From a virus, in the IMG/VR virus record IMGVR_UViG_3300023213_000414: 38,885 bases of DNA. The stretch is one strand, 5' to 3'. The position numbers were made by a program, and so were the translations under genes. Of the stretch, positions 20,878 through 38,885 are shown piece by piece; position 1 is the first letter of the stretch, and each line of letters begins with the position of its first letter. The notes below the pieces were generated by a model. It did no database searches. It was not told where the DNA came from and worked only from the letters and a program-made list of their open reading frames with translations.

Positions 20878-22785
20878 TTATCCGGCCGGATGCGTCATTC
20901 CAATGTTATTAGCCCCTCTGGGAATTGCTATTCCACCTTCGCTTGCCGAAGAATTCATTGCTTGCGGGATCTGACTCTGAGGATTTGTTCCTCTTCCACC
21001 TTGGGTATTTTGCATCTGAGCTTCCGCCATCATTTGCATTTCTTTTTGTCTTTGCGCCTGTTCTTGTTCAGAGGCCACAATTTTGGAATCATCGATATCC
21101 AAAGACTTGATAATTTCTCCCAGTAATTTAGTCATCGAATATTTTCGAGTGAACTCCTGCATCATCTGGGGACTTGCTCCGATGCTTTGAAGAAGGGCTT
21201 GGATTTTTCTAAAGTCCTGCATCTTATTCAAGGTCTGAGAGAGGCCAAATACCTTATACTTATGGCCCATGGCCGTCTGAGCGAAGATTTCTTCTGGAGT
21301 CATACTAGACACAAACTTGGCCTGTTCTGAACCCACGATCGCTTTTACTTCTTCAGTATCTAAATCGTTCATGTGTTGCGCCATCACAAGCCAACAACAA
21401 TCTAGAAGAGGGGCTACCATTTCCTCTTCGATCACCTTGACTATTCCATTCATGATGCCAGTTAAGGATTGATTACTGGCTACGATTTCAGTGGCCTTAA
21501 CCTGTCTTTGAGGTAAAGAACCGGTTCTGAAATCATTCGTAAGAGCAGACTGATCAAATTCCCGATTCATCATTTGAAGCATATTCATCGACTCGGGAGT
21601 CATCGCAGACGTATCTATTCTCTCAAGAACCTTGCCACCGGGAGGACAAGATGAATTCACCAGAAGCGTCGTAGCGGGGGCGATTCCTTCAGAAACCTGG
21701 GCCGAGTTTTCAAGCCATGATGGACGAAGTTGCTTTATCCCATGAACCTCCATCATGGCTGCGTCCACATTCAGGTTGTAAAGTTCATTCATCGCTAAAT
21801 TATGCCTTGTGGGCGCGTCCATCAGGGCCTTATGCCAAACAGAAAGCGGAACTCTGATGATTGGACTAATAACAAATGGGCTTCTTGCGTGCCAAAATGG
21901 ATTTTTCTTGGGGGGCCGGATCAGATTCCCCTGCGCATCGATCGCCGATACGCAATTTTCCATTATCACTTTACCGGTATGTCTTTCTACTAAAGCTCCC
22001 CAGCACTCATAGATCGTTACCTGTCTCCGATATTGAGACATAGTAATATTCTGTCCGGTCTCTCTTGATTTCTTGGCTTTCTGAAGATCATCTACAAAAT
22101 ATGTGATGTTATTTACAGCATTGATATCAAAGTCATCCGGATTTTCTTCCGCCACTTTCTTAAGCTGATGCCAATCCATCTCGATTCTCTGGACTTCATA
22201 TAGACGGCGTCCAGTCGGGTCAGGAAAGTAATCTTCTTGCCGGATCAAATTCAAATCCAGTTGCCATACACGCTTATCCTTTCTGACGAGTTCCCTGTCT
22301 TTACTTCCAATGTCAGACGCCTTTGGCCTGGCCTCAAACCTGGTTCTATTTACATATTTTCCACCCACTTTCACAATCATGAGGGCGCCAAGAAGGCCAA
22401 ACTTTATGGTGTCGTTAAAAAAGTTAGGGAACTTGTTCTTTTCAAGCTGCCTCAAAAGAAGGAGCTCTATTGATTTCGGGTTTATCTTTATGTCTTCTGG
22501 CTTTTCCCCTGGCTCTAATTCAACCCGAAACCAATCTCCGATATCCATCAATCCTTGTTGAAGGAAGCTGCATAATTGCTCCACAGCAATCGCCTGCTTA
22601 GCCAGAAACTCCTTGCTTTGTCCCCTCTTCTTGTGACTGAAGTCTTGCCTGAGATGATAAACCTCGTAATTCTGTCTGTTCTGAAGATAACGATTCCTGC
22701 GAGCGGTCTCGGCTTCGTCTTTGTAATTCCAAATGGCCTGAGCGATGGGATTTGGAAAAGAAAGTGGTGGTGTTTCGCTAATCAC
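20878..22785 (-). CDS. Portal protein
   Basis: 635 aa, ATGA-coupled to the terminase ORF upstream. Size, position and a Gln/Met-rich acidic C-terminus are typical of portals. Confidence 0.7.
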   Translation of the reverse strand: MISETPPLSFPNPIAQAIWNYKDEAETARRNRYLQNRQNYEVYHLRQDFSHKKRGQSKEFLAKQAIAVEQLCSFLQQGLMDIGDWFRVELEPGEKPEDIKINPKSIELLLLRQLEKNKFPNFFNDTIKFGLLGALMIVKVGGKYVNRTRFEARPKASDIGSKDRELVRKDKRVWQLDLNLIRQEDYFPDPTGRRLYEVQRIEMDWHQLKKVAEENPDDFDINAVNNITYFVDDLQKAKKSRETGQNITMSQYRRQVTIYECWGALVERHTGKVIMENCVSAIDAQGNLIRPPKKNPFWHARSPFVISPIIRVPLSVWHKALMDAPTRHNLAMNELYNLNVDAAMMEVHGIKQLRPSWLENSAQVSEGIAPATTLLVNSSCPPGGKVLERIDTSAMTPESMNMLQMMNREFDQSALTNDFRTGSLPQRQVKATEIVASNQSLTGIMNGIVKVIEEEMVAPLLDCCWLVMAQHMNDLDTEEVKAIVGSEQAKFVSSMTPEEIFAQTAMGHKYKVFGLSQTLNKMQDFRKIQALLQSIGASPQMMQEFTRKYSMTKLLGEIIKSLDIDDSKIVASEQEQAQRQKEMQMMAEAQMQNTQGGRGTNPQSQIPQAMNSSASEGGIAIPRGANNIGMTHPAG

Positions 22786-23663
22786 AGCTCAAATCTCGAT
22801 TCCGAGAAATTATTCCATTGATAAGATAATGTTGGCACATCTGTAATTGTACTAGGCCTGGTCGTTAAGATACGAGAGGCAACATATTGAAGGCAATCCT
22901 GGATATGAGAGTGGATATCCTTTTTAGGACGCAACTTGTTAGGTTCCAGTTCTAGAACCTTATCATCGTAACGATAGCCGCCTTGAAAGCCACGGACAAG
23001 GACGGGACAGTTGGGAAGCGAAACCTGAAAACATAGTCCATTCTTAGTTCTTCTGGTTAGCCAATGGTCCACTGCGCTTTTTCTTTCCTCCCATGAAACC
23101 GGTCCAGGAATGATATTGCGGAATCCATTTTCATCGATAATTTTGGCGCAAGTGCCCTCGTCGGTGTCTTTCCTTGCTTCTCCGGAAGGATCTATAAAAA
23201 CGAGGAAGTCTTTGGCATGATCCTGCCATAGTGGAAAACTTACCCTGAGCTGTGGAACTAACCATGCCACAAATCTTTTGGCGCCCATGTTAATGGCGGT
23301 GAACTCTTTTAAACAGCACAGCGTATCTTCTTGTAATTGGCACACAAGACATGCCGGAGTAAGTCCAAAATCAAATCCAAGAAGGAGCGGAAGACCAACG
23401 TAGGGGATGATATCCATCTTATTGCCATGCAGATTGATATCCCAATCAGCAAAGACAGAAAGTCCCTCATATGAATCCCATTGTAGTTCATACTCTTGCT
23501 TAAATCTTCTGGAAGGCATGGAAGATTTGATTTCTTGTATTTCCTTAGAATCTACTTTTTCTGGATCGGCAGAATAGTGCAACTGGAAAACAACGAATCT
23601 GTTTTTTGGATTTCTCCATATCTCTATACCTCTGGAAGGAAAAAGATGTTTCTCAGTAATCAT
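22782..23663 (-). CDS. terL: Terminase large subunit, C-terminal part (lid segment plus RNase H-like nuclease domain)
   Basis: FKQEYELQW (the QEY element ending the ATPase lid). Nuclease acidic residues in LLLGFDFGLTP, VFIDPSGEARKD and HIQDCLQY. Confidence 0.75.
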   Translation of the reverse strand: MITEKHLFPSRGIEIWRNPKNRFVVFQLHYSADPEKVDSKEIQEIKSSMPSRRFKQEYELQWDSYEGLSVFADWDINLHGNKMDIIPYVGLPLLLGFDFGLTPACLVCQLQEDTLCCLKEFTAINMGAKRFVAWLVPQLRVSFPLWQDHAKDFLVFIDPSGEARKDTDEGTCAKIIDENGFRNIIPGPVSWEERKSAVDHWLTRRTKNGLCFQVSLPNCPVLVRGFQGGYRYDDKVLELEPNKLRPKKDIHSHIQDCLQYVASRILTTRPSTITDVPTLSYQWNNFSESRFEL

Positions 23664-24325
23664 AAAGACCCAGACGTAGTACTTAAATCAAGCTCGTCAT
23701 GAACCAATCTTTTAAAGAAACCAGGACCAGGAGAAGACACTACTGTCATTCTTCCACCGCCCTCTAGAGTTGGGATCGATGCAGAATACATTTTTTCAGC
23801 ATCTTCCCAAAAAGCAGCTTCATCTGCCAATATCCCAGAAAACGTAAATTGGCGTAACTGATCGGCTCCCGACGCAAATCCCTGAATTATGGAATTTGTT
23901 TCATGAAGAGATAACTTACAATAAGTCAGCTCCCATTTTGGGATAAACTCCTTTGGTAATTGTTCTTTATCCAAATTCTCCAAAATGAAATCTGATTTCT
24001 TAACCAGATCGTGGCTATCATCTTCTTTCTTACTTACAAAGGCGTCGTGCCTACCGATATGAAAAGTAGCATCCCAGGTGTAAAGGGCAATATTCACCCA
24101 AGACATTTTCATGCGTCTGGATTTTGGAATCAGAATCATTGGCTCTTTTTCCCATAATCGGACGTAAAGTTTTAGGTAGTCTAGATAGACTGGGAATGGT
24201 TTTACCGGATTTTTCTTATCGGCAGGATCTAAGGTTTTTACTACCTTTAAGAATTCCCAAGGATCATTTCTGATTCGCTGAACACGCTCTAACCATTCGT
24301 CTTCACTAGTTGGGTTAATCAGCAC
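23660..24325 (-). CDS. terL: Terminase large subunit, N-terminal ATPase core
   Basis: Deviant Walker A (LIPKSRRMKMSW), Walker B (GILADEAAFW) and coupling motif (VVSSPGPG). Ends in an ATGA overlap with the next ORF. Confidence 0.75.
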   Translation of the reverse strand: MLINPTSEDEWLERVQRIRNDPWEFLKVVKTLDPADKKNPVKPFPVYLDYLKLYVRLWEKEPMILIPKSRRMKMSWVNIALYTWDATFHIGRHDAFVSKKEDDSHDLVKKSDFILENLDKEQLPKEFIPKWELTYCKLSLHETNSIIQGFASGADQLRQFTFSGILADEAAFWEDAEKMYSASIPTLEGGGRMTVVSSPGPGFFKRLVHDELDLSTTSGSL

Positions 24326-30502: not shown

Positions 30503-30546
30503 GGTGCGGTTGACTTAGGCATTGGGTCAACTGCACCTTCCTTTTC
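30503..30546 (+). terminator. Rho-independent terminator of the plus-strand block
   Basis: 12-bp stem GGTGCGGTTGAC/GTCAACTGCACC (30503..30514 with 30526..30537, one G-T pair that works only on the plus strand), 11-nt loop, then TTCCTTTTC. Confidence 0.6.
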
Positions 30547-30760
30547 ACGGACCCTTGATCCGCTTAAGTTCACCTTTGATTTCTGCTATGTCTTTTTGGA
30601 TTTGCTCGATCTTAGGATTCAGATCATTGAGAGAGATTGTATTACTCGCAGTCGCCAGGTGAATATTAGCAAGCCAATAGGCTCCACCACCTATGACCAA
30701 CACTGCCGTTCCCAAGGGAATCCAAGTATTTTCAGTGAGGGTTCTTACGGTCTTCGTCAT
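30545..30760 (-). CDS. Single-pass membrane protein with coiled-coil tail (71 aa)
   Basis: TM segment WIPLGTAVLVIGGGAYWLANI followed by KIEQIQKDIAEIKGELKRIK. Last gene of the minus-strand early block. Confidence 0.45.
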   Translation of the reverse strand: MTKTVRTLTENTWIPLGTAVLVIGGGAYWLANIHLATASNTISLNDLNPKIEQIQKDIAEIKGELKRIKGP

Positions 30761-30774
30761 GTAAAAATCTTACA

Positions 30775-31053
30775 CTAACGTTCATATCGAAGCATGTATT
30801 GATAGAGCCTTCCTGCTTTTTCGAGATCGAATCTTCCGACGAAATATTTATTGCAATAAAAGCAGAGCAGGCCCCTTACCTTACCTGTCTTGTGGTTATG
30901 ATCGACACACAAAGCTCTCTTGAATAAGGAACTTGGTTTCCGGCATATGTCACAACAGCCCCCCTGAGATTTGAGTTTTCTATTGAAATCCTCAAGAGAG
31001 ATCCCAAACTTCTTCTTAAGGTATTGATCTTTTACTTTATCTTTCTTAGTCAT
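30775..31053 (-). CDS. Recombination endonuclease VII-family (His-Cys box) nuclease
   Basis: CCDICRKP...LCVDHNHKTGKVRGLLCFYCNKYFVG matches the Endonuclease_7 motif. I chose the ATG at 31053 (MTKKDKV...); the track start upstream runs through a GC-rich hairpin. Confidence 0.75.
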   Translation of the reverse strand: MTKKDKVKDQYLKKKFGISLEDFNRKLKSQGGCCDICRKPSSLFKRALCVDHNHKTGKVRGLLCFYCNKYFVGRFDLEKAGRLYQYMLRYER

Positions 31054-31057
31054 AAAC

Positions 31058-31110
31058 CGGCTGGGCGGTAGGGTTTGAACCCAATGGTTGTCGCGAGACC
31101 CGCCCAGCCG
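31058..31110 (-). other. GC-rich 11-bp stem-loop in a 93-nt intergenic spacer
   Basis: CGGCTGGGCGG (31058..31068) is perfectly complementary to CCGCCCAGCCG (31100..31110). The 31-nt loop contains GGGTTTGAACCC and GTCGCGAGAC sub-palindromes. On the minus strand the stem ends 4 nt before the endonuclease VII ATG. Confidence 0.5.
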
Positions 31111-31146
31111 ATTATCTCCCACCATTCGACTAATGGGAAACGCGTT

Positions 31147-31641
31147 TTATTTCCAAAGCTCTTCTTCTTTTCCTGTGTCGGGGTTCAACCACTTACCATA
31201 AAAGACCTTCTTATGCCCAATCTTTTTATCATCGTATTTACCCTCAAGGACCTTTGCTGGGGTGTCTGGACGAATAAAGAATTCAAAGTCAGCAAACCAA
31301 TGTCTTTCGTTTTCTCCGTTACAGAATTTGCTTTCGTTGATTTTAATGATCACATGAATCCAATAATTATCATCCGGATGTTCCTTCCATCTTTGGACGG
31401 CCGACTTATATCTATTTCCGGAAGTATTCATCGTTTGTACTTTAGGAAGATTCGAGTTTGACCATTGGTTCCAGATAAAAGCTAATGGCGGAAGGTCAGT
31501 AGAAGGAAGTCTCTCTTCTTTTTTCTTTTCCTTTTTTGAAGTTAACTTCACCAGTTCCCCGTGGATATCTCTAAGAAGATTAACTTGGAGAAGAAGCGTG
31601 TCTTGAAGGAGATTGTAGATATCGTCTATGTGAGTAGCCAT
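31147..31641 (-). CDS. Hypothetical protein, possibly DnaD/replication-associated C-terminal domain
   Basis: 164 aa. The C-terminal pattern RWKEHPDDNYWIHVIIKINESKFCNGENERHWFADFEFFIRPDTPAKVLEGKY resembles conserved phage replication-associated C-terminal domains. Recalled, not verified. Confidence 0.35.
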   Translation of the reverse strand: MATHIDDIYNLLQDTLLLQVNLLRDIHGELVKLTSKKEKKKEERLPSTDLPPLAFIWNQWSNSNLPKVQTMNTSGNRYKSAVQRWKEHPDDNYWIHVIIKINESKFCNGENERHWFADFEFFIRPDTPAKVLEGKYDDKKIGHKKVFYGKWLNPDTGKEEELWK

Positions 31642-31654
31642 ATGCTATATCGCA

Positions 31655-32056
31655 TTATATCGATCTTCCTATTCCTGGAATATGACTACTAAACTCCGGC
31701 AAACCATCTCCATCTACGCAACACCAAAGATGAAGACAATAGGGGTTGATATTCACGTGGTTCTTTTCTTCTGGAAAAACCATTATTGCCTTATTATTTT
31801 TTCCTACGAAAAGTCTTTTTACTTCGGTAATCTCTTCGTAATTTGGAAGCCTGTCTTTCCTGGAAAAAGAAACATGGACCGAGTGTTTTCCGTCTGATTT
31901 CTTGGTATTGTCTATCAAAACCAGAAGATGCCTATTTCGATAAGCTCTTTGCATTGGTGGAGGTTCCATTGCTGGAATTTCTTTCCAATCGATAGGAAGA
32001 ATTGGGATTATCCAATCCATAGCCTCTACTTCGATAGCTCTATCTATTACGTTCAT
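31655..32056 (-). CDS. Conserved phage hypothetical protein (133 aa)
   Basis: ORF with HVSFSRKDRLPNYEEITEVKRLF...VNINPYCLHLW, a pattern I recall from many phage genomes. Function unknown. Confidence 0.45.
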   Translation of the reverse strand: MNVIDRAIEVEAMDWIIPILPIDWKEIPAMEPPPMQRAYRNRHLLVLIDNTKKSDGKHSVHVSFSRKDRLPNYEEITEVKRLFVGKNNKAIMVFPEEKNHVNINPYCLHLWCCVDGDGLPEFSSHIPGIGRSI

Positions 32057-32289
32057 TGATACACCTCTGGTCTACATTTCGGACAAGGAACTTTCTCTAA
32101 AGCTTGTGGTAGTCCTATCTGTGGTTGAATGTAAGCTCTAAGAACAGATTGTTTGTAACCACAGATTCCGCAATATGGAATTGGAGCTCCTCGGAGGTTA
32201 TCCTTCTTTTCAGATCGTTTAATCATAAAACCCCAAGAACGCGAACCGTGTTCAGTGTTTCCCAGAGGGTTTGAGGTTCCAGAAGACAA
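32053..32289 (-). CDS. Small zinc-ribbon protein (78 aa)
   Basis: CGICGYK...CPKC. TTG start 5 nt after the strong purine SD AAGGGGGAGGGGGG. An internal ATG (MIKRSEKK) is the alternative start. Confidence 0.4.
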   Translation of the reverse strand: MSSGTSNPLGNTEHGSRSWGFMIKRSEKKDNLRGAPIPYCGICGYKQSVLRAYIQPQIGLPQALEKVPCPKCRPEVYQ

Positions 32290-32307
32290 AAGAACCCCCC
32301 TCCCCCT

Positions 32308-32776
32308 TAATAAGATACTATTCCCTGGCTCATCGCGCCTGTATGCCGGGATTATGTATTTTCCCTTAGCGCAACTAACTACCTGCTTAGTGGACGACGG
32401 CGTAATACAGCGATGCGACTAGCTAGCACCTGGGCCCCTTAGTCCCCTCGGTGGTCCGTCCCACTTTCCGATAAACCTTTCCCGTCAGGAATCGGTCCGT
32501 CAGACAACTCTGTTTCCACAAGGAGCTCACTCTTGGAAACTATGCTTATAGGGTTTCCCCTAGAAGAATCTGAAGATCCCACAGCTTCATAGGCAGTGCC
32601 GCCTCAGCTGATGTAGGCCCGAGTCAGGGCCTTACCCCAATTTACTGGCTGAAAGGATGGATTGCTTATTAAACAGGAATGTGTTTAATGAATTCCATCC
32701 ATTTTCAGCCAATGGATGTAGCTTTACTAAGGGCTGATTGAAATGGTCAAGAAGTTTTTGGCGTATTCAATCGGCC
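32308..32776. ncRNA. ORF-free, GC-enriched, hairpin-dense region: candidate structured non-coding RNA (family unknown) or replication origin
   Basis: The track shows no ORF of 60 aa or more in any frame across about 470 nt of an otherwise tightly packed genome. Hand GC counts: 37/60 (32401..32460) and 36/60 (32581..32640), against 24/60 and 28/60 in flanking coding rows. Contains a 25-bp composite hairpin (32647..32710) and several other helices. Confidence 0.4.
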
Positions 32777-32989
32777 CTAGTAATTCTTAGGCTTTCCCTT
32801 CGGAACATACATATCTTCAGGTTCTCGCCCCCATTTATGGATAACGTTAGGATCATGCTGGGAGCAACAGTAGAAGGATTTGCTCGTTTCTAGGACCTTG
32901 AACTTCCTAGTGCAGCCAGGAGCCTGGCAGAAACGCCACTCCATCTTAAGTCTGTCTGGATACTTAGGGTCTGAGGTGGGGTTATCCAT
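32777..32989 (-). CDS. Small Cys/His-containing protein (70 aa)
   Basis: ORF with C..PGC...CCSQH. No clear SD. First ORF after the 33016..33054 terminator. Confidence 0.35.
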   Translation of the reverse strand: MDNPTSDPKYPDRLKMEWRFCQAPGCTRKFKVLETSKSFYCCSQHDPNVIHKWGREPEDMYVPKGKPKNY

Positions 32990-33015
32990 TTAACACGGTG
33001 CTAAAGCCAGAATTT

Positions 33016-33054
33016 AAGAAAAATGGGGTGTAAGACACTATTGCCCCACACCCC
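33016..33054 (-). terminator. Rho-independent terminator (minus strand) after the exported-protein genes
   Basis: On the minus strand: GGGGTGT (33054..33048), loop, ACACCCC (33031..33025), then ATTTTTCTT (33024..33016). Confidence 0.5.
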
Positions 33055-33123
33055 ACCAGTCCATGTTCATTTCCCATATAAGATTGTCGGCTGTGTTTTG
33101 GTTTATTTCAAATCCAGAGAAGA

Positions 33124-33597
33124 TTAGAAATTAGATCTGCATGTATAGTACGCGCAGTAATGTTGAGTCTGTCCGGGGCCGGCTGTGCAGGGTCCAGGGT
33201 CCAAATTGGCCAATCCGCTATTGGTGGTACCGCCTGCAATTGTGATTACGTCAGTAAAGACGTATCTTAAATGATGAACCTCGCAAGGATCAACTGGAGG
33301 ACCGAATCCAGCTGGAATCCATGTTCCCGATCTATATGTAATTCCACCACCTTCTGCAAAGCAGCCGTCGCCACCTAAAAAAGTTAAGCCAGTGCCGGAG
33401 GCACCGCCAGGGCCAAGATTGAAAGTTATGGAATTTATGTCAGTTAAAAAAGTACTGCAATCGGTAACAGACGCCTCTACTGGATATACGACTATAAGAG
33501 ACTTATCAACACCACCACAATTTGTGTCTCCGTTACTTTTCCATTGATTTGCAAAAAGATTGACGCAAAGAAACAATATAATGAATATACGATTCAT
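33124..33597 (-). CDS. Exported Cys-rich protein (157 aa)
   Basis: Signal peptide MNRIFIILFLCVNLFA/N. About 8 Cys in the mature part. Gly-rich. Confidence 0.5.
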   Translation of the reverse strand: MNRIFIILFLCVNLFANQWKSNGDTNCGGVDKSLIVVYPVEASVTDCSTFLTDINSITFNLGPGGASGTGLTFLGGDGCFAEGGGITYRSGTWIPAGFGPPVDPCEVHHLRYVFTDVITIAGGTTNSGLANLDPGPCTAGPGQTQHYCAYYTCRSNF

Positions 33598-33606
33598 AAA
33601 TTCTCC

Positions 33607-34317
33607 TTAATAGTTTAAATACGAGCGTCCAAAATAATTCGCCCCATCGAAGTAAAGATCCACAATATCGGTCTTATTTGCTCCGCTTCCTGTGGGAGAT
33701 ATTCCCCCTGACCATTTTACGGAGAGTGGCCAAGTGTATGTTCTTCCGCCTGTGGCATCTTGCAAGAAGTGAATGCGATACAATCCGCCTGTTTGAGTTC
33801 CCGCGATCGTGATAGTAACGTTAGCGGTCACCGTGGTTTTTTGGACCGGACAACTAGTAAAAGTAAGGGTAAGAGCGGCACCAGAATTTCCGGCGTTATT
33901 CTCACAAGGATCTCCTCTATATCCGTTTAAGGTAACTTGAGTTCCGATTAAGTCTACCGGCTGAGAATCATTAAACATCCTTGCGTGTCCATTAGCCCCA
34001 AAACCAAAAAACATAGTACCAAGCCCACCGTTGGCACCAAAACCGGCAGAAGATAAATAAATTCCAGAAAATCTTCCTTGATTTTCCTCTGGAAAAATCA
34101 AAGCATTTAATTGGGGGCTATAGATTATTCCAGAACTAATCAGATCTGGATGTTTCTTGAAATCACCTCCAAACATCGCAATTCCACCATCGGGGCACTG
34201 ATTATCCGTGCAAGAAACGGATTTTACGTTGAGTTTGGTTCCTTGAAAACCAGGAGGTGGTGCCGAGAGTAAATTAAAAGATAAAAGAAAAACAACGCCC
34301 AGAAAAATATTTTTCAT
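33607..34317 (-). CDS. Exported protein (236 aa) with conserved phage-type C-terminal beta domain
   Basis: Signal peptide MKNIFLGVVFLLSFNLLSA/P. The C-terminal LYRIHFLQDATGGRTYTWPLSVKWSGG...DIVDLYFDGANYFG resembles a module I recall at the C-termini of phage fibre/structural proteins. Unverified. Confidence 0.5.
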   Translation of the reverse strand: MKNIFLGVVFLLSFNLLSAPPPGFQGTKLNVKSVSCTDNQCPDGGIAMFGGDFKKHPDLISSGIIYSPQLNALIFPEENQGRFSGIYLSSAGFGANGGLGTMFFGFGANGHARMFNDSQPVDLIGTQVTLNGYRGDPCENNAGNSGAALTLTFTSCPVQKTTVTANVTITIAGTQTGGLYRIHFLQDATGGRTYTWPLSVKWSGGISPTGSGANKTDIVDLYFDGANYFGRSYLNY

Positions 34318-35707: not shown

Positions 35708-36283
35708 TTATTTTCCCTTCTCCATCTCAATCAATTCCCCATACTCCACGGTCCCGCCCTCAAGTCTACCGCAGATGATTCGTTTCTCTTCTGGAGTCGG
35801 TAGCCGCCAAAGACAGAGGCCAGAGAATATTCTTAAGCCGCCTTTCAGGGATTTCTTGCAAAGGATCGATGTTCCCGCTTCGATGCCCCAACCCGCTTCG
35901 ATGCCCCCACCCGCTTCGATGCCCCAACCCGCTTCGATGCCCTCACCCGCTTCGATGCCCTCACCCGCTTTGATGCCCCAACCCGCTTCGATGCCCCAAC
36001 CCGCTTTGATGCCCCAACCCGCTTCGATGCCCCCACCCGCTTCGATGCCCCAACCCGCTTTGATGCCCCCACCCGCTTCGATGCCCCCACCCGCTTCGAT
36101 GCCCTCACCCGCTTCGATGCCCCAACCCGCTTTGATGCGAGTCTTAGCTTTAAGCGATCCCGAGACTTTTAACCATTTTTCACCTAAGTCGATTTCTATT
36201 TCGGCATCGGATTCAATAGAACCTTGGAATTCATAGGCCCAACCAATATCAACGAGACCGGGGTAGTTTTGGGTGATTTTCAT
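35708..36283 (-). CDS. Hexapeptide tandem-repeat protein (14 x GxGI[E/K]A), predicted beta-helical, acidic
   Basis: 191-aa ORF on the same strand as its neighbours and ATGA-coupled at 36280..36283. It has unique N- and C-terminal regions flanking the repeat. The other open frames across the repeat are low-complexity artefacts. Confidence 0.6.
   Translation of the reverse strand: MKITQNYPGLVDIGWAYEFQGSIESDAEIEIDLGEKWLKVSGSLKAKTRIKAGWGIEAGEGIEAGGGIEAGGGIKAGWGIEAGGGIEAGWGIKAGWGIEAGWGIKAGEGIEAGEGIEAGWGIEAGGGIEAGWGIEAGTSILCKKSLKGGLRIFSGLCLWRLPTPEEKRIICGRLEGGTVEYGELIEMEKGK
35874..36138. repeat. Tandem array: 14 complete copies plus one partial copy of an 18-nt unit (CCCGCTTCGATGCCCCAA)
   Basis: I split the array by hand into 18-mers. 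Copies differ only at unit positions 8 (C/T), 16 (C/T) and 17 (A/C). Confidence 0.95.
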
Positions 36284-38358: not shown

Positions 38359-38758
38359 AGTGTTATACCTATCCTAGACACATAGTGTCAATACTGAAAA
38401 TTAATGAGATGGGGGGAAGGTGTATCAGAGCAATCACTCCCTCACTCCTCATACTAAGCCCTTCGTCTTATCGTATTTATACCCTGCGATACGTATTCTA
38501 TTGCTTTGAATTATGCTGAGCGTCTTCGTGTCTATGCGTATTTATGCGGTGCTAACTATATGATTGCATTGCATAGACAGTATTATCAGACGCATAGACT
38601 ATCGGTACATGTCCTGTTTCACACCGTTCACTAAAGGTCACTTCGAGTTAAGCCCAATCAGTTACCCAATGATTTAGAGGAATTGGACGAAAGAAAAATC
38701 GTGAACGTAAAATATATATATATGTGTATATGACAACCTTGGGGGGTCTAGTTTTCGA
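38359..38758. promoter_or_regulatory. Divergent early control region (continues into 1..172 on the circle) with repeated motifs and an AT-rich tract
   Basis: About 572 nt without convincing ORFs between divergent gene blocks. GCATAGAC occurs 3 times (38571..38578, 38592..38599, inverted at 38530..38537). CTTCGT..CGTATTTAT occurs twice (38461..38480, 38524..38545). Palindrome GACACATAGTGTC at 38377..38389. (AT)n/TGTATATG tract at 38711..38732. TAATGCAC twice at 148..155 and 158..165. Confidence 0.5.
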
Positions 38759-38885
38759 CTTCGTACACTCGGTTTGTACCATTCTTCTATTCTCCCGTTA
38801 TCCCTCACATTCACAGCGCATCAACACAGTGCTCTCGCAGGAAACCGTGTATTTGCACGCCCTGAACTAAGACATTGACCATTCC
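38759..38885. repeat. Terminal direct repeat, copy 2 (identical to 1..127)
   Basis: Same 127-nt string as the window start. Consistent with a circular-assembly overlap or a short direct terminal repeat. Confidence 0.95.

Follow-up and report, generated by a model that had tools for sequence, protein, structure and literature searches.

The IMG/VR virus record IMGVR_UViG_3300023213_000414, a stretch of 38,885 nucleotides (nt) referred to below as the window, carries beside its replication genes a segment (32290..32776) which is devoid of longer open reading frames (ORFs). An initial annotation had described it as a 470-nt ORF desert with raised G+C content and dense secondary structure and had proposed a novel structured RNA or, as the main alternative, a replication origin. 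Our tentative reading is a different one: the segment may be a non-coding spacer inside a minus-strand early operon, which would be transcribed together with its neighbours and act at the RNA level, not as a free-standing folded RNA. Its anatomy, the order of the genes, the composition of the strands and the statistics of folding are observations, whereas minus-strand transcription across the segment and a role in this transcript of two long hairpins at its right-hand end, named H1 and H2, are our inferences. The segment is an orphan spacer of presumed regulatory role in an uncultured phage without close relatives, and as such it is worth recording but not a discovery.

The ORF desert was borne out. 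No ORF of at least 60 amino acids (aa) was found in any of the six frames, and the extent is somewhat larger than described (Table 1). With the same cut-off it is the second-largest ORF-free zone of a genome in which the genes are packed end to end; the largest (38359..38885) runs on into the terminal repeat and all other gaps measure at most 143 nt. Stop codons are frequent in all six frames, with TAA, TAG and TGA mixed and spread over the segment, so that no long remnant frame is left. As the stops are of mixed types and TAG is used as a genuine stop, recoding of stop codons was ruled out as an explanation of the desert, and a hidden gene was ruled out since none of the small ORFs inside the segment is preceded by a ribosome-binding site. 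The four G+C counts made by hand for the initial annotation (37/60, 36/60, 24/60 and 28/60) were exact. The raised G+C content holds for the left part only: 32290-32640 has a value of 0.53, which is the 97th percentile of 300-nt windows and is equalled by several coding stretches, whereas the hairpin-bearing right end has a value of 0.38 and lies below the genome mean of 0.44. The left part is moreover strongly biased between the strands, with 31.6% C and 21.4% G on the plus strand and accordingly 31.6% G and 21.4% C in a minus-strand transcript. The coding sequence on either side shows a minus-strand excess of G over C as well, though a weaker one, and the left stretch carries 12 G-tracts of at least three G on the minus strand versus four on the plus strand.

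For a genome-wide comparison of folding, the folding energies of 1,544 windows of 200 nt were regressed on composition and the residuals were expressed as z-scores. The interval 32601-32800 is the strongest folding outlier of all 1,544 on both strands (residual z -6.0 on plus, -5.0 on minus), and the excess of structure is confined to it, as the windows covering 32150-32600 have residuals of -1.9 to +1.2. The left 356 nt folded alone are at the level of shuffled sequences on either strand (z -0.65 on plus, +0.57 on minus). The dense secondary structure attributed to the whole segment is therefore found in the right-hand part of about 170 nt, which contains H1 and H2, and is missing from the left part. 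All helices named in the initial annotation and its direct repeat do exist where they had been placed. The smaller helices have z-scores of +0.5 to -2.6 and are at shuffle level, with the exception of the small G+C-rich hairpin with the AGGCCC/GGGCCT core, which is borderline, since 5 to 8 of 200 shuffles fold equally well. The direct repeat GGTCCGTC is a chance occurrence, as 89% of shuffles contain an 8-mer that is present at least twice.

Folded as a whole, the segment reaches z -4.97 on the plus and -2.99 on the minus strand, and these values are carried entirely by H1 and H2. One or two hairpins can thus account completely for the folding score of an entire segment, and local z-scores together with a genome-wide background should be consulted before a sequence is named a structured RNA. 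The proposal of one large structured RNA of a new class, comprising all 470 nt on either strand, did not hold and we consider it very improbable. The G+C content above genome level, the G-rich composition of the minus strand, which resembles that of structured RNAs in general, and a single GNRA-type loop on the minus strand (UAGGG-GAAA-CCCUA) would agree with it, but three quarters of the segment fold like shuffled sequence, and the predicted fold consists of short independent hairpins in a diffuse ensemble (centroid of -57.8 versus a minimum free energy of -113.6 kcal/mol on the minus strand). Furthermore, the segment matched no RNA family, and the collections searched contained no homologue that could show covariation. 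A search of the whole window with the Rfam 15 models, including group I and II introns, RNase P, transfer-messenger RNA (tmRNA), 6S RNA, riboswitches, GOLLD, ROOL and HEARO, gave no match at the gathering thresholds, and at E-values up to 10 the region 32000-33200 yielded only chance matches to microRNA and small nucleolar RNA models of at most 19 bits, compared to thresholds of 33-90 bits. ARAGORN detected no tRNA or tmRNA gene in the window. The lack of excess structure in the remainder of the segment fits an untranslated leader rather than a ribozyme-like RNA. A self-splicing intron dividing one gene was rejected as well, because the upstream 70-aa protein is complete, the downstream 78-aa ORF is equipped with a separate ribosome-binding site and start codon, and no intron model matched.

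The two hairpins differ in their strand preference. H1 is about equally stable on either strand, with -32.4 kcal/mol on the plus strand (z -6.9) and -30.0 kcal/mol on the minus strand (z -7.4), and contains one G.U pair on plus and two on minus. H2 reaches -31.0 kcal/mol on the plus (z -8.4) and -20.6 kcal/mol on the minus strand (z -5.8), since its three G.U pairs on the plus strand become C.A mismatches on the minus strand, where it has none. Both hairpins consequently still fold significantly on the minus strand. The predicted length of double-stranded RNA amounts to 26-28 base pairs (bp) in H1 on either strand, and in H2 to 25 bp on the plus strand but 21 bp on the minus strand. In structure, though only in this respect, both thus resemble RNase III-type sites, which have about two helical turns (at least 20 bp) of mostly continuous double-stranded RNA. 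The TAG stop codon of the 70-aa gene (32779..32777) lies within H2. A 5'-arm likeness between H1 and H2 (TTTACT..GGCTGA..ATGG) is reached by 12% of shuffles and the idea that they are diverged duplicates was dropped.

All genes between 30545 and 37179 are encoded on the minus strand and closely packed, and the segment sits within this block. In the direction of transcription it is preceded by a 157-aa gene, a terminator (33057..33022) and the 70-aa ORF (32989..32777) and followed by the 78-aa ORF (32289..32053) and the genes encoding a DUF7694 protein, a DnaD-like protein and an endonuclease VII. A minus-strand transcript would therefore contain, in this order, H2, H1, a leader of about 350 nt and a run of the composition G5AG6. 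H2 and H1, which begin where the zinc-finger gene has its stop codon, would form an RNA barrier. This barrier might shield the upstream message at its 3' end, offer a site for processing by a double-strand-specific enzyme of the RNase III type or function as an attenuator or pause site that depends on a factor, and it would uncouple the upstream gene from the replication cluster. The leader is rich in G, poor in C and otherwise unstructured, and its low content of C would allow it to stay untranslated without inviting Rho-dependent polarity. Finally, the G5AG6 run would act as the Shine-Dalgarno sequence of the 78-aa ORF, its TTG start codon following after 8 nt, and this ORF heads DUF7694, the DnaD-like C-terminal domain and endonuclease VII. 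That the segment ends in GGAGG in front of an ORF with coding-like codon bias supports this arrangement. If either of the hairpins is a defined processing or antitermination signal, it would represent a new cis element for the switch from early to replication functions.

Table 1. Features in and around the ORF-free segment (positions refer to the window).
Feature	Position	Strand	Remarks
ORF-free zone	32290..32776 (487 nt)		between two minus-strand genes; no ORF of at least 60 aa in six frames
GC-rich stretch, G-rich and C-poor on minus	32290..32640	-	no excess folding; presumed untranslated leader
G5AG6 run followed by TTCTTTTG	32295..32306	-	GGAGG core 8 nt ahead of TTG start of 78-aa ORF
Small G+C-rich hairpin	32613..32637		AGGCCC/GGGCCT core; z -2.6 plus, -1.8 minus
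Hairpin H1	32646..32711		26 bp (9 + 7 + 10), 2-nt bulge, small internal loop, 6-nt loop
Hairpin H2	32724..32783		25 bp on plus (6 + 12 + 7), one bulged A
78-aa CxxC...CxxC ORF	32053..32289	-	first ORF of replication-side cluster; 4-nt overlap with DUF7694 gene
70-aa zinc-finger gene	32777..32989	-	W-R-x-C-x4-C ... Y-C-C-x2-H; stop codon inside H2
Strong intrinsic terminator	33022..33057	-	16-bp stem, then TTTTCTT; after 157-aa gene, upstream of 70-aa gene

Early operons of the T7 type contain intercistronic hairpins for RNase III processing, such as R1.1. H1 and H2 resemble these sites as stem-loops of 20-26 bp broken by a bulge or an internal loop, and also in their position between cistrons of one presumed early transcript, right after a stop codon and without a U-tract. 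The likeness is one of predicted shape, as there is no sequence similarity; in addition, this genome has two such hairpins instead of one between every early gene, and H2 folds better on the opposite strand. A second system to be compared is put of phage HK022, a processive-antitermination RNA consisting of two adjacent stem-loops which act in cis. In our segment, too, two adjacent stem-loops lie in a presumed early transcript upstream of genes that need read-through, but each of them is about twice as long and they follow a gene and not directly a promoter. A model for put was not among the Rfam matches.

Several observations weigh against the spacer as we read it. The main one is that H2 prefers the plus strand, by 10 kcal/mol. 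Neither H1 nor H2 is followed by a U-tract; both are absent from the terminator scan, no five T within 8 nt follow them on either strand, and simple intrinsic termination is thus excluded. The only convincing hairpin-plus-U-tract terminator of the genome is the one at 33057..33022, about 250 nt away from the hairpins. Comparison with this canonical element sets H1 and H2 apart from intrinsic terminators, and its presence casts some doubt on the amount of minus-strand transcription that arrives at the segment. A convincing minus-strand promoter for the downstream cluster was not found, the best candidate at 32381/32356 having 8/12 matches. Moreover, the putative processing or barrier role is suggested only by the shape of the hairpins, and 350 nt are long for a mere leader in such a compact genome. 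Finally, homologous regions, for which the initial annotation had recommended a search, were found in none of the phage, plasmid, viral-contig, metagenome and genome collections searched. As separate observations, a promoter-like site (33111..33083) lies just upstream of the terminator at 33057..33022, which may also function as a leader attenuator for the 70-aa gene.

The stronger fold on the plus strand leads to another explanation, namely a plus-strand antisense RNA directed against the 5' leader of the 78-aa ORF and against the ribosome-binding site and start of this ORF, which would end at H1 and H2 and lower the expression of the replication cluster by pairing. We regard it as quite unlikely. 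It could account for the lower plus-strand z-score of the whole segment and for the far higher stability of H2 with its three G.U pairs on this strand, where the hairpin is followed by UUCUU, a near-miss of the terminator rule; the left part of the plus strand is moreover C-rich, G-poor and unstructured. The two T-G pairs from which the initial annotation had derived a plus-strand transcript (32735/32773 and 32667/32690) are real, but the hint is weaker than it appeared: H2 has three G.U pairs on plus versus none on minus, H1 has one versus two, and the resulting four against two are not significant. H1 shows no strand preference, and the whole-segment score comes wholly from the two hairpins. 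Between 31500 and 33150 the plus strand has no sigma-70-like promoter, not even with the threshold relaxed to 8/12 matches. Furthermore, a C-rich, unstructured and untranslated RNA would be a good substrate for Rho and would hardly accumulate, and the collections searched contain no homologue of the segment. Lambda OOP RNA, an antisense regulator of phage early genes of about 80 nt, illustrates the comparison. The geometry of the segment would allow a short plus-strand RNA that has a strong terminal hairpin and overlaps a minus-strand gene at its end, but a promoter was not found, the candidate would comprise 400-500 nt and its terminator lacks a proper U-tract. Sigma-70-like promoter matches are in general rarer in this genome than in shuffled sequences (23 versus 34.2 and 23 versus 31.3), and the host may use another promoter type. 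A promoter or operator motif common to the segment and other intergenic regions was not detected.

The G5AG6 run deserves separate consideration. Runs of five G are strongly depleted throughout the genome (41 versus 75.5 expected) and seem to be selected against, and G5AG6 is the only paired run of at least five G. With a G4Hunter value of -1.76 it is the top non-coding 25-nt window. Judged by its sequence and ideal spacing, it is fully explained as a very strong Shine-Dalgarno sequence for the first ORF of the replication cluster. Nevertheless, on the minus strand GGGGGAGGGGGGTTCTTTTG (32306..32287) comes very close to the core of CSB II (conserved sequence block II), a G5AG7-type run followed by a T-rich run, the resemblance being one of sequence only. 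Human mitochondrial CSB II (GGGGGAGGGGGGGTTTG) is a transcription-stop and primer-forming element, which stops transcription via a DNA:RNA hybrid G-quadruplex and thereby makes the replication primer, also with phage-type polymerases (PMC4176368). The minus strand of the segment reads GGGGGAGGGGGG-TTCTTTTG, with G5AG6 in place of G5AG7 of CSB II and likewise a T-rich run behind it; as in CSB II, the run is situated on the non-template strand of the presumed transcript, preceded by G-rich sequence and next to replication functions. In contrast to CSB II, the run is one G shorter and is perfectly placed as the Shine-Dalgarno sequence of an ORF. We know of no report of the CSB II mechanism in phages.

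On the basis of this likeness, the segment might be an origin at which transcription primes replication, a type that is not known from phages; this idea, suggested by sequence resemblance, we rate as decidedly improbable. Leftward transcription may cross the 350 nt with their 12 non-template G-tracts and reach G5AG6-TTCTTTTG, where an R-loop or a DNA:RNA hybrid G-quadruplex may halt the RNA polymerase and leave a primer upstream of the replication genes; by analogy with the stem-loops of ColE1 RNA II, the upstream hairpins H1 and H2 may fold the 5' part of the primer RNA. If a G-rich leader and a CSB II-like run do prime replication here, a mechanism of mitochondria and ColE1 would be extended to phages.

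More generally, it is in our view unlikely that the segment serves as a replication origin or as a priming site at the level of DNA or of an R-loop. The long imperfect palindromes could be loading or unwinding structures, or transcription of the G-rich strand could lead to priming at G5AG6 through an R-loop or a hybrid G-quadruplex. The location would be appropriate, since the segment adjoins the cluster of 78-aa ORF, DUF7694, DnaD-like and endonuclease VII genes and is one of only two large non-coding zones. Folding is significant for H1 and H2 when they are treated as single-stranded DNA, too (H1 with z of about -6 on both strands), the distribution of G-tracts is as lopsided as described above, and G5AG6 with the adjacent T-run nearly matches CSB II, although this run is already accounted for as a ribosome-binding site. 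The hexamer TTTCCC is present five times on the plus strand within 32258-32798 (540 nt), with 23 plus-strand copies in the entire genome. This count is marginal, as 16/500 shuffles of the region reach such a number for any hexamer, and suggests at most weakly that GGGAAA is a repeated motif of the transcript; a CsrB-like GGA sponge was not supported, as GGA is not enriched.

The origin proposed in the initial annotation found no positive support among the hallmarks of such elements. Iterons of at least 12 nt are missing from the segment, whose only repeats are the two chance copies of GGTCCGTC and the five of TTTCCC, so that the three or more direct repeats of about 12-22 bp of an iteron origin are not present; the adjacent replication genes contain no iterons either. 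DnaA boxes (TTATCCACA) do not occur in the segment; the nearest box with one mismatch lies at 32836-32844, and the whole window contains 12 boxes of this quality versus 9.6 expected. An AT-rich unwinding tract is lacking. The cumulative skew shows no inflection at the segment and turns at about 30400, where the gene orientation flips. Lambda ori, the model of iteron-type phage origins, shares with the segment the palindrome-bearing, non-coding or low-coding character and the position beside replication-initiator genes, but the segment has neither iterons nor an AT-rich tract and its body is GC-rich. The DnaD-like protein (31147-31641 on the minus strand, 164 aa) moreover corresponds only to the C-terminal third of O-like or DnaD-like initiators of about 300 aa, and an origin-binding N-terminal domain was not identified near its gene.

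Compared with the segment, the other large ORF-free zone bears a greater likeness to an origin or control region. It comprises 38359-38758, continues into 1-172 and lies between divergent gene blocks. It contains the inverted repeats GTCTATGCGT / ACGCATAGAC, a further copy of GCATAGAC and two repeats of the GCGTATTTAT type; besides the repeated GCATAGAC/GTCTATGC motifs there is an (AT)n tract at about 38710-38735.

The G+C-rich left part could also have a purely historical explanation. According to this, its 350 nt would be decayed horizontally acquired DNA without a function of its own, either the dead part of a moron-like block which brought in the zinc-finger gene or a destroyed gene, with H1 and H2 as old transcript-end structures of the block. 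We consider this explanation unlikely, too. It would fit the G+C contents of 0.53 in the left part and 0.47 in the 70-aa gene compared to about 0.41 in the adjacent cluster (30545-32289), and the 70-aa gene is bracketed in a moron-like manner by a terminator upstream and hairpins downstream. The left part carries no signal of structure or motifs, and a longer ancestor of the gene is conceivable, as one homologue of the 70-aa protein (P0069, 264 aa) contains the same finger twice and, judged by eye, is fused to an HNH-like domain in its C-terminal part. A weak in-frame likeness to the tails of homologues (E 0.1-0.2) was also seen. Yet a profile of the finger found no decayed copy, all scores being negative, a decayed copy of the C-terminal nuclease-like domain of P0069 was not detected, and in tblastn searches with the homologues of the zinc-finger protein the best E-values within the desert were about 0.1. 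A tblastx comparison of the segment with 50 loci of related gene context showed no coding similarity (best E 0.15). The spread of stops over all frames has been mentioned, and a genome of this compactness would be expected to delete 350 nt of junk.

Both flanking ORFs were skipped by the gene caller of the source, although ORFs of 63-77 aa were called elsewhere in the window. For the 70-aa ORF a word-index search gave no match, but an exhaustive phmmer search retrieved eight remote homologues with E-values of 4e-7 to 5e-4. The protein aligns along its length with complete proteins of 68-117 aa sharing the pattern W-R-x-C-x4-C...Y-C-C-x2-H, and from these homologues we take the ORF to be a genuine gene. 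Consequently, the right boundary of the segment can be kept at 32777, and H2 does overlap the stop codon. The protein belongs to a family of small finger proteins that has no name. The 78-aa ORF is probably a real gene, but this is unproven. Its codon score of +0.09 in the reading frame exceeds those of the other two frames (-0.28 and -0.67), and the G+C content at third codon positions (0.28) is low like that of its neighbours; no homologue was found among 5.8 billion proteins.

BLAST searches of the segment against phage and plasmid collections gave no match. The nearest phage according to a neighbouring protein is represented by a contig with a G+C content of 53%, whose DUF7694 protein is 59% identical and in which several genes are in loose synteny, but this contig has neither a similar segment nor comparable hairpins. 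Among 47 viral loci which carry the neighbouring phrog_25637 gene there was no likeness to the segment, and viral contigs searched with the DnaD-like protein, the DUF7694 protein and an alignment of the zinc-finger proteins gave no result. Chance matches were all that came from scans of the viral, metagenome and genome collections for sequence patterns; among them, a 31-mer match in Myxococcales is not a hairpin, and a 16-mer match (L132/L133) was likewise due to chance.

The genome as a whole is that of a circularly assembled phage of about 38.76 kb (~38,758 bp). Bases 1-127 are exactly identical to 38759-38885, and this terminal duplication of 127 nt indicates that the contig is circularly closed and the genome complete. 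No relative was detectable among cultured phages: a tblastn search with the portal protein gave zero matches, and the exonuclease is at most 35% identical to its nearest matches. Scans against PHROG and Pfam (41 entries for about 31 ORFs, with five large structural-module proteins left without assignment) revealed no integrase, reverse transcriptase or protelomerase, and contexts such as an attP site with integrase, a retron, a diversity-generating retroelement or a protelomerase target were dropped for this reason.

Further observations concern genes at a greater distance. The large terminase seems to be encoded by two minus-strand ORFs which overlap by 4 nt, 24325..23660 corresponding to the ATPase part (phrog_2 positions 236-416) and 23663..22782 to the nuclease part (413-593). 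A true split of the gene, a frameshift and a sequencing error are possible reasons. The ORF 35708..36283 on the minus strand contains at 35874-36138 an 18-nt tandem repeat with 14.7 copies of 92% identity, which is the most G-run-rich stretch of the genome and encodes hexapeptides of the type G-I-E/K-A-G-W/G/E in a 191-aa protein without PHROG match. In the middle of the early operon, the products of 33124-33597 and 33607-34317, both on the minus strand, have N-termini which by eye resemble signal peptides, and the 236-aa protein of this pair gave weak matches to tail-fibre PHROGs. These two products could be moron-like surface or exclusion proteins.

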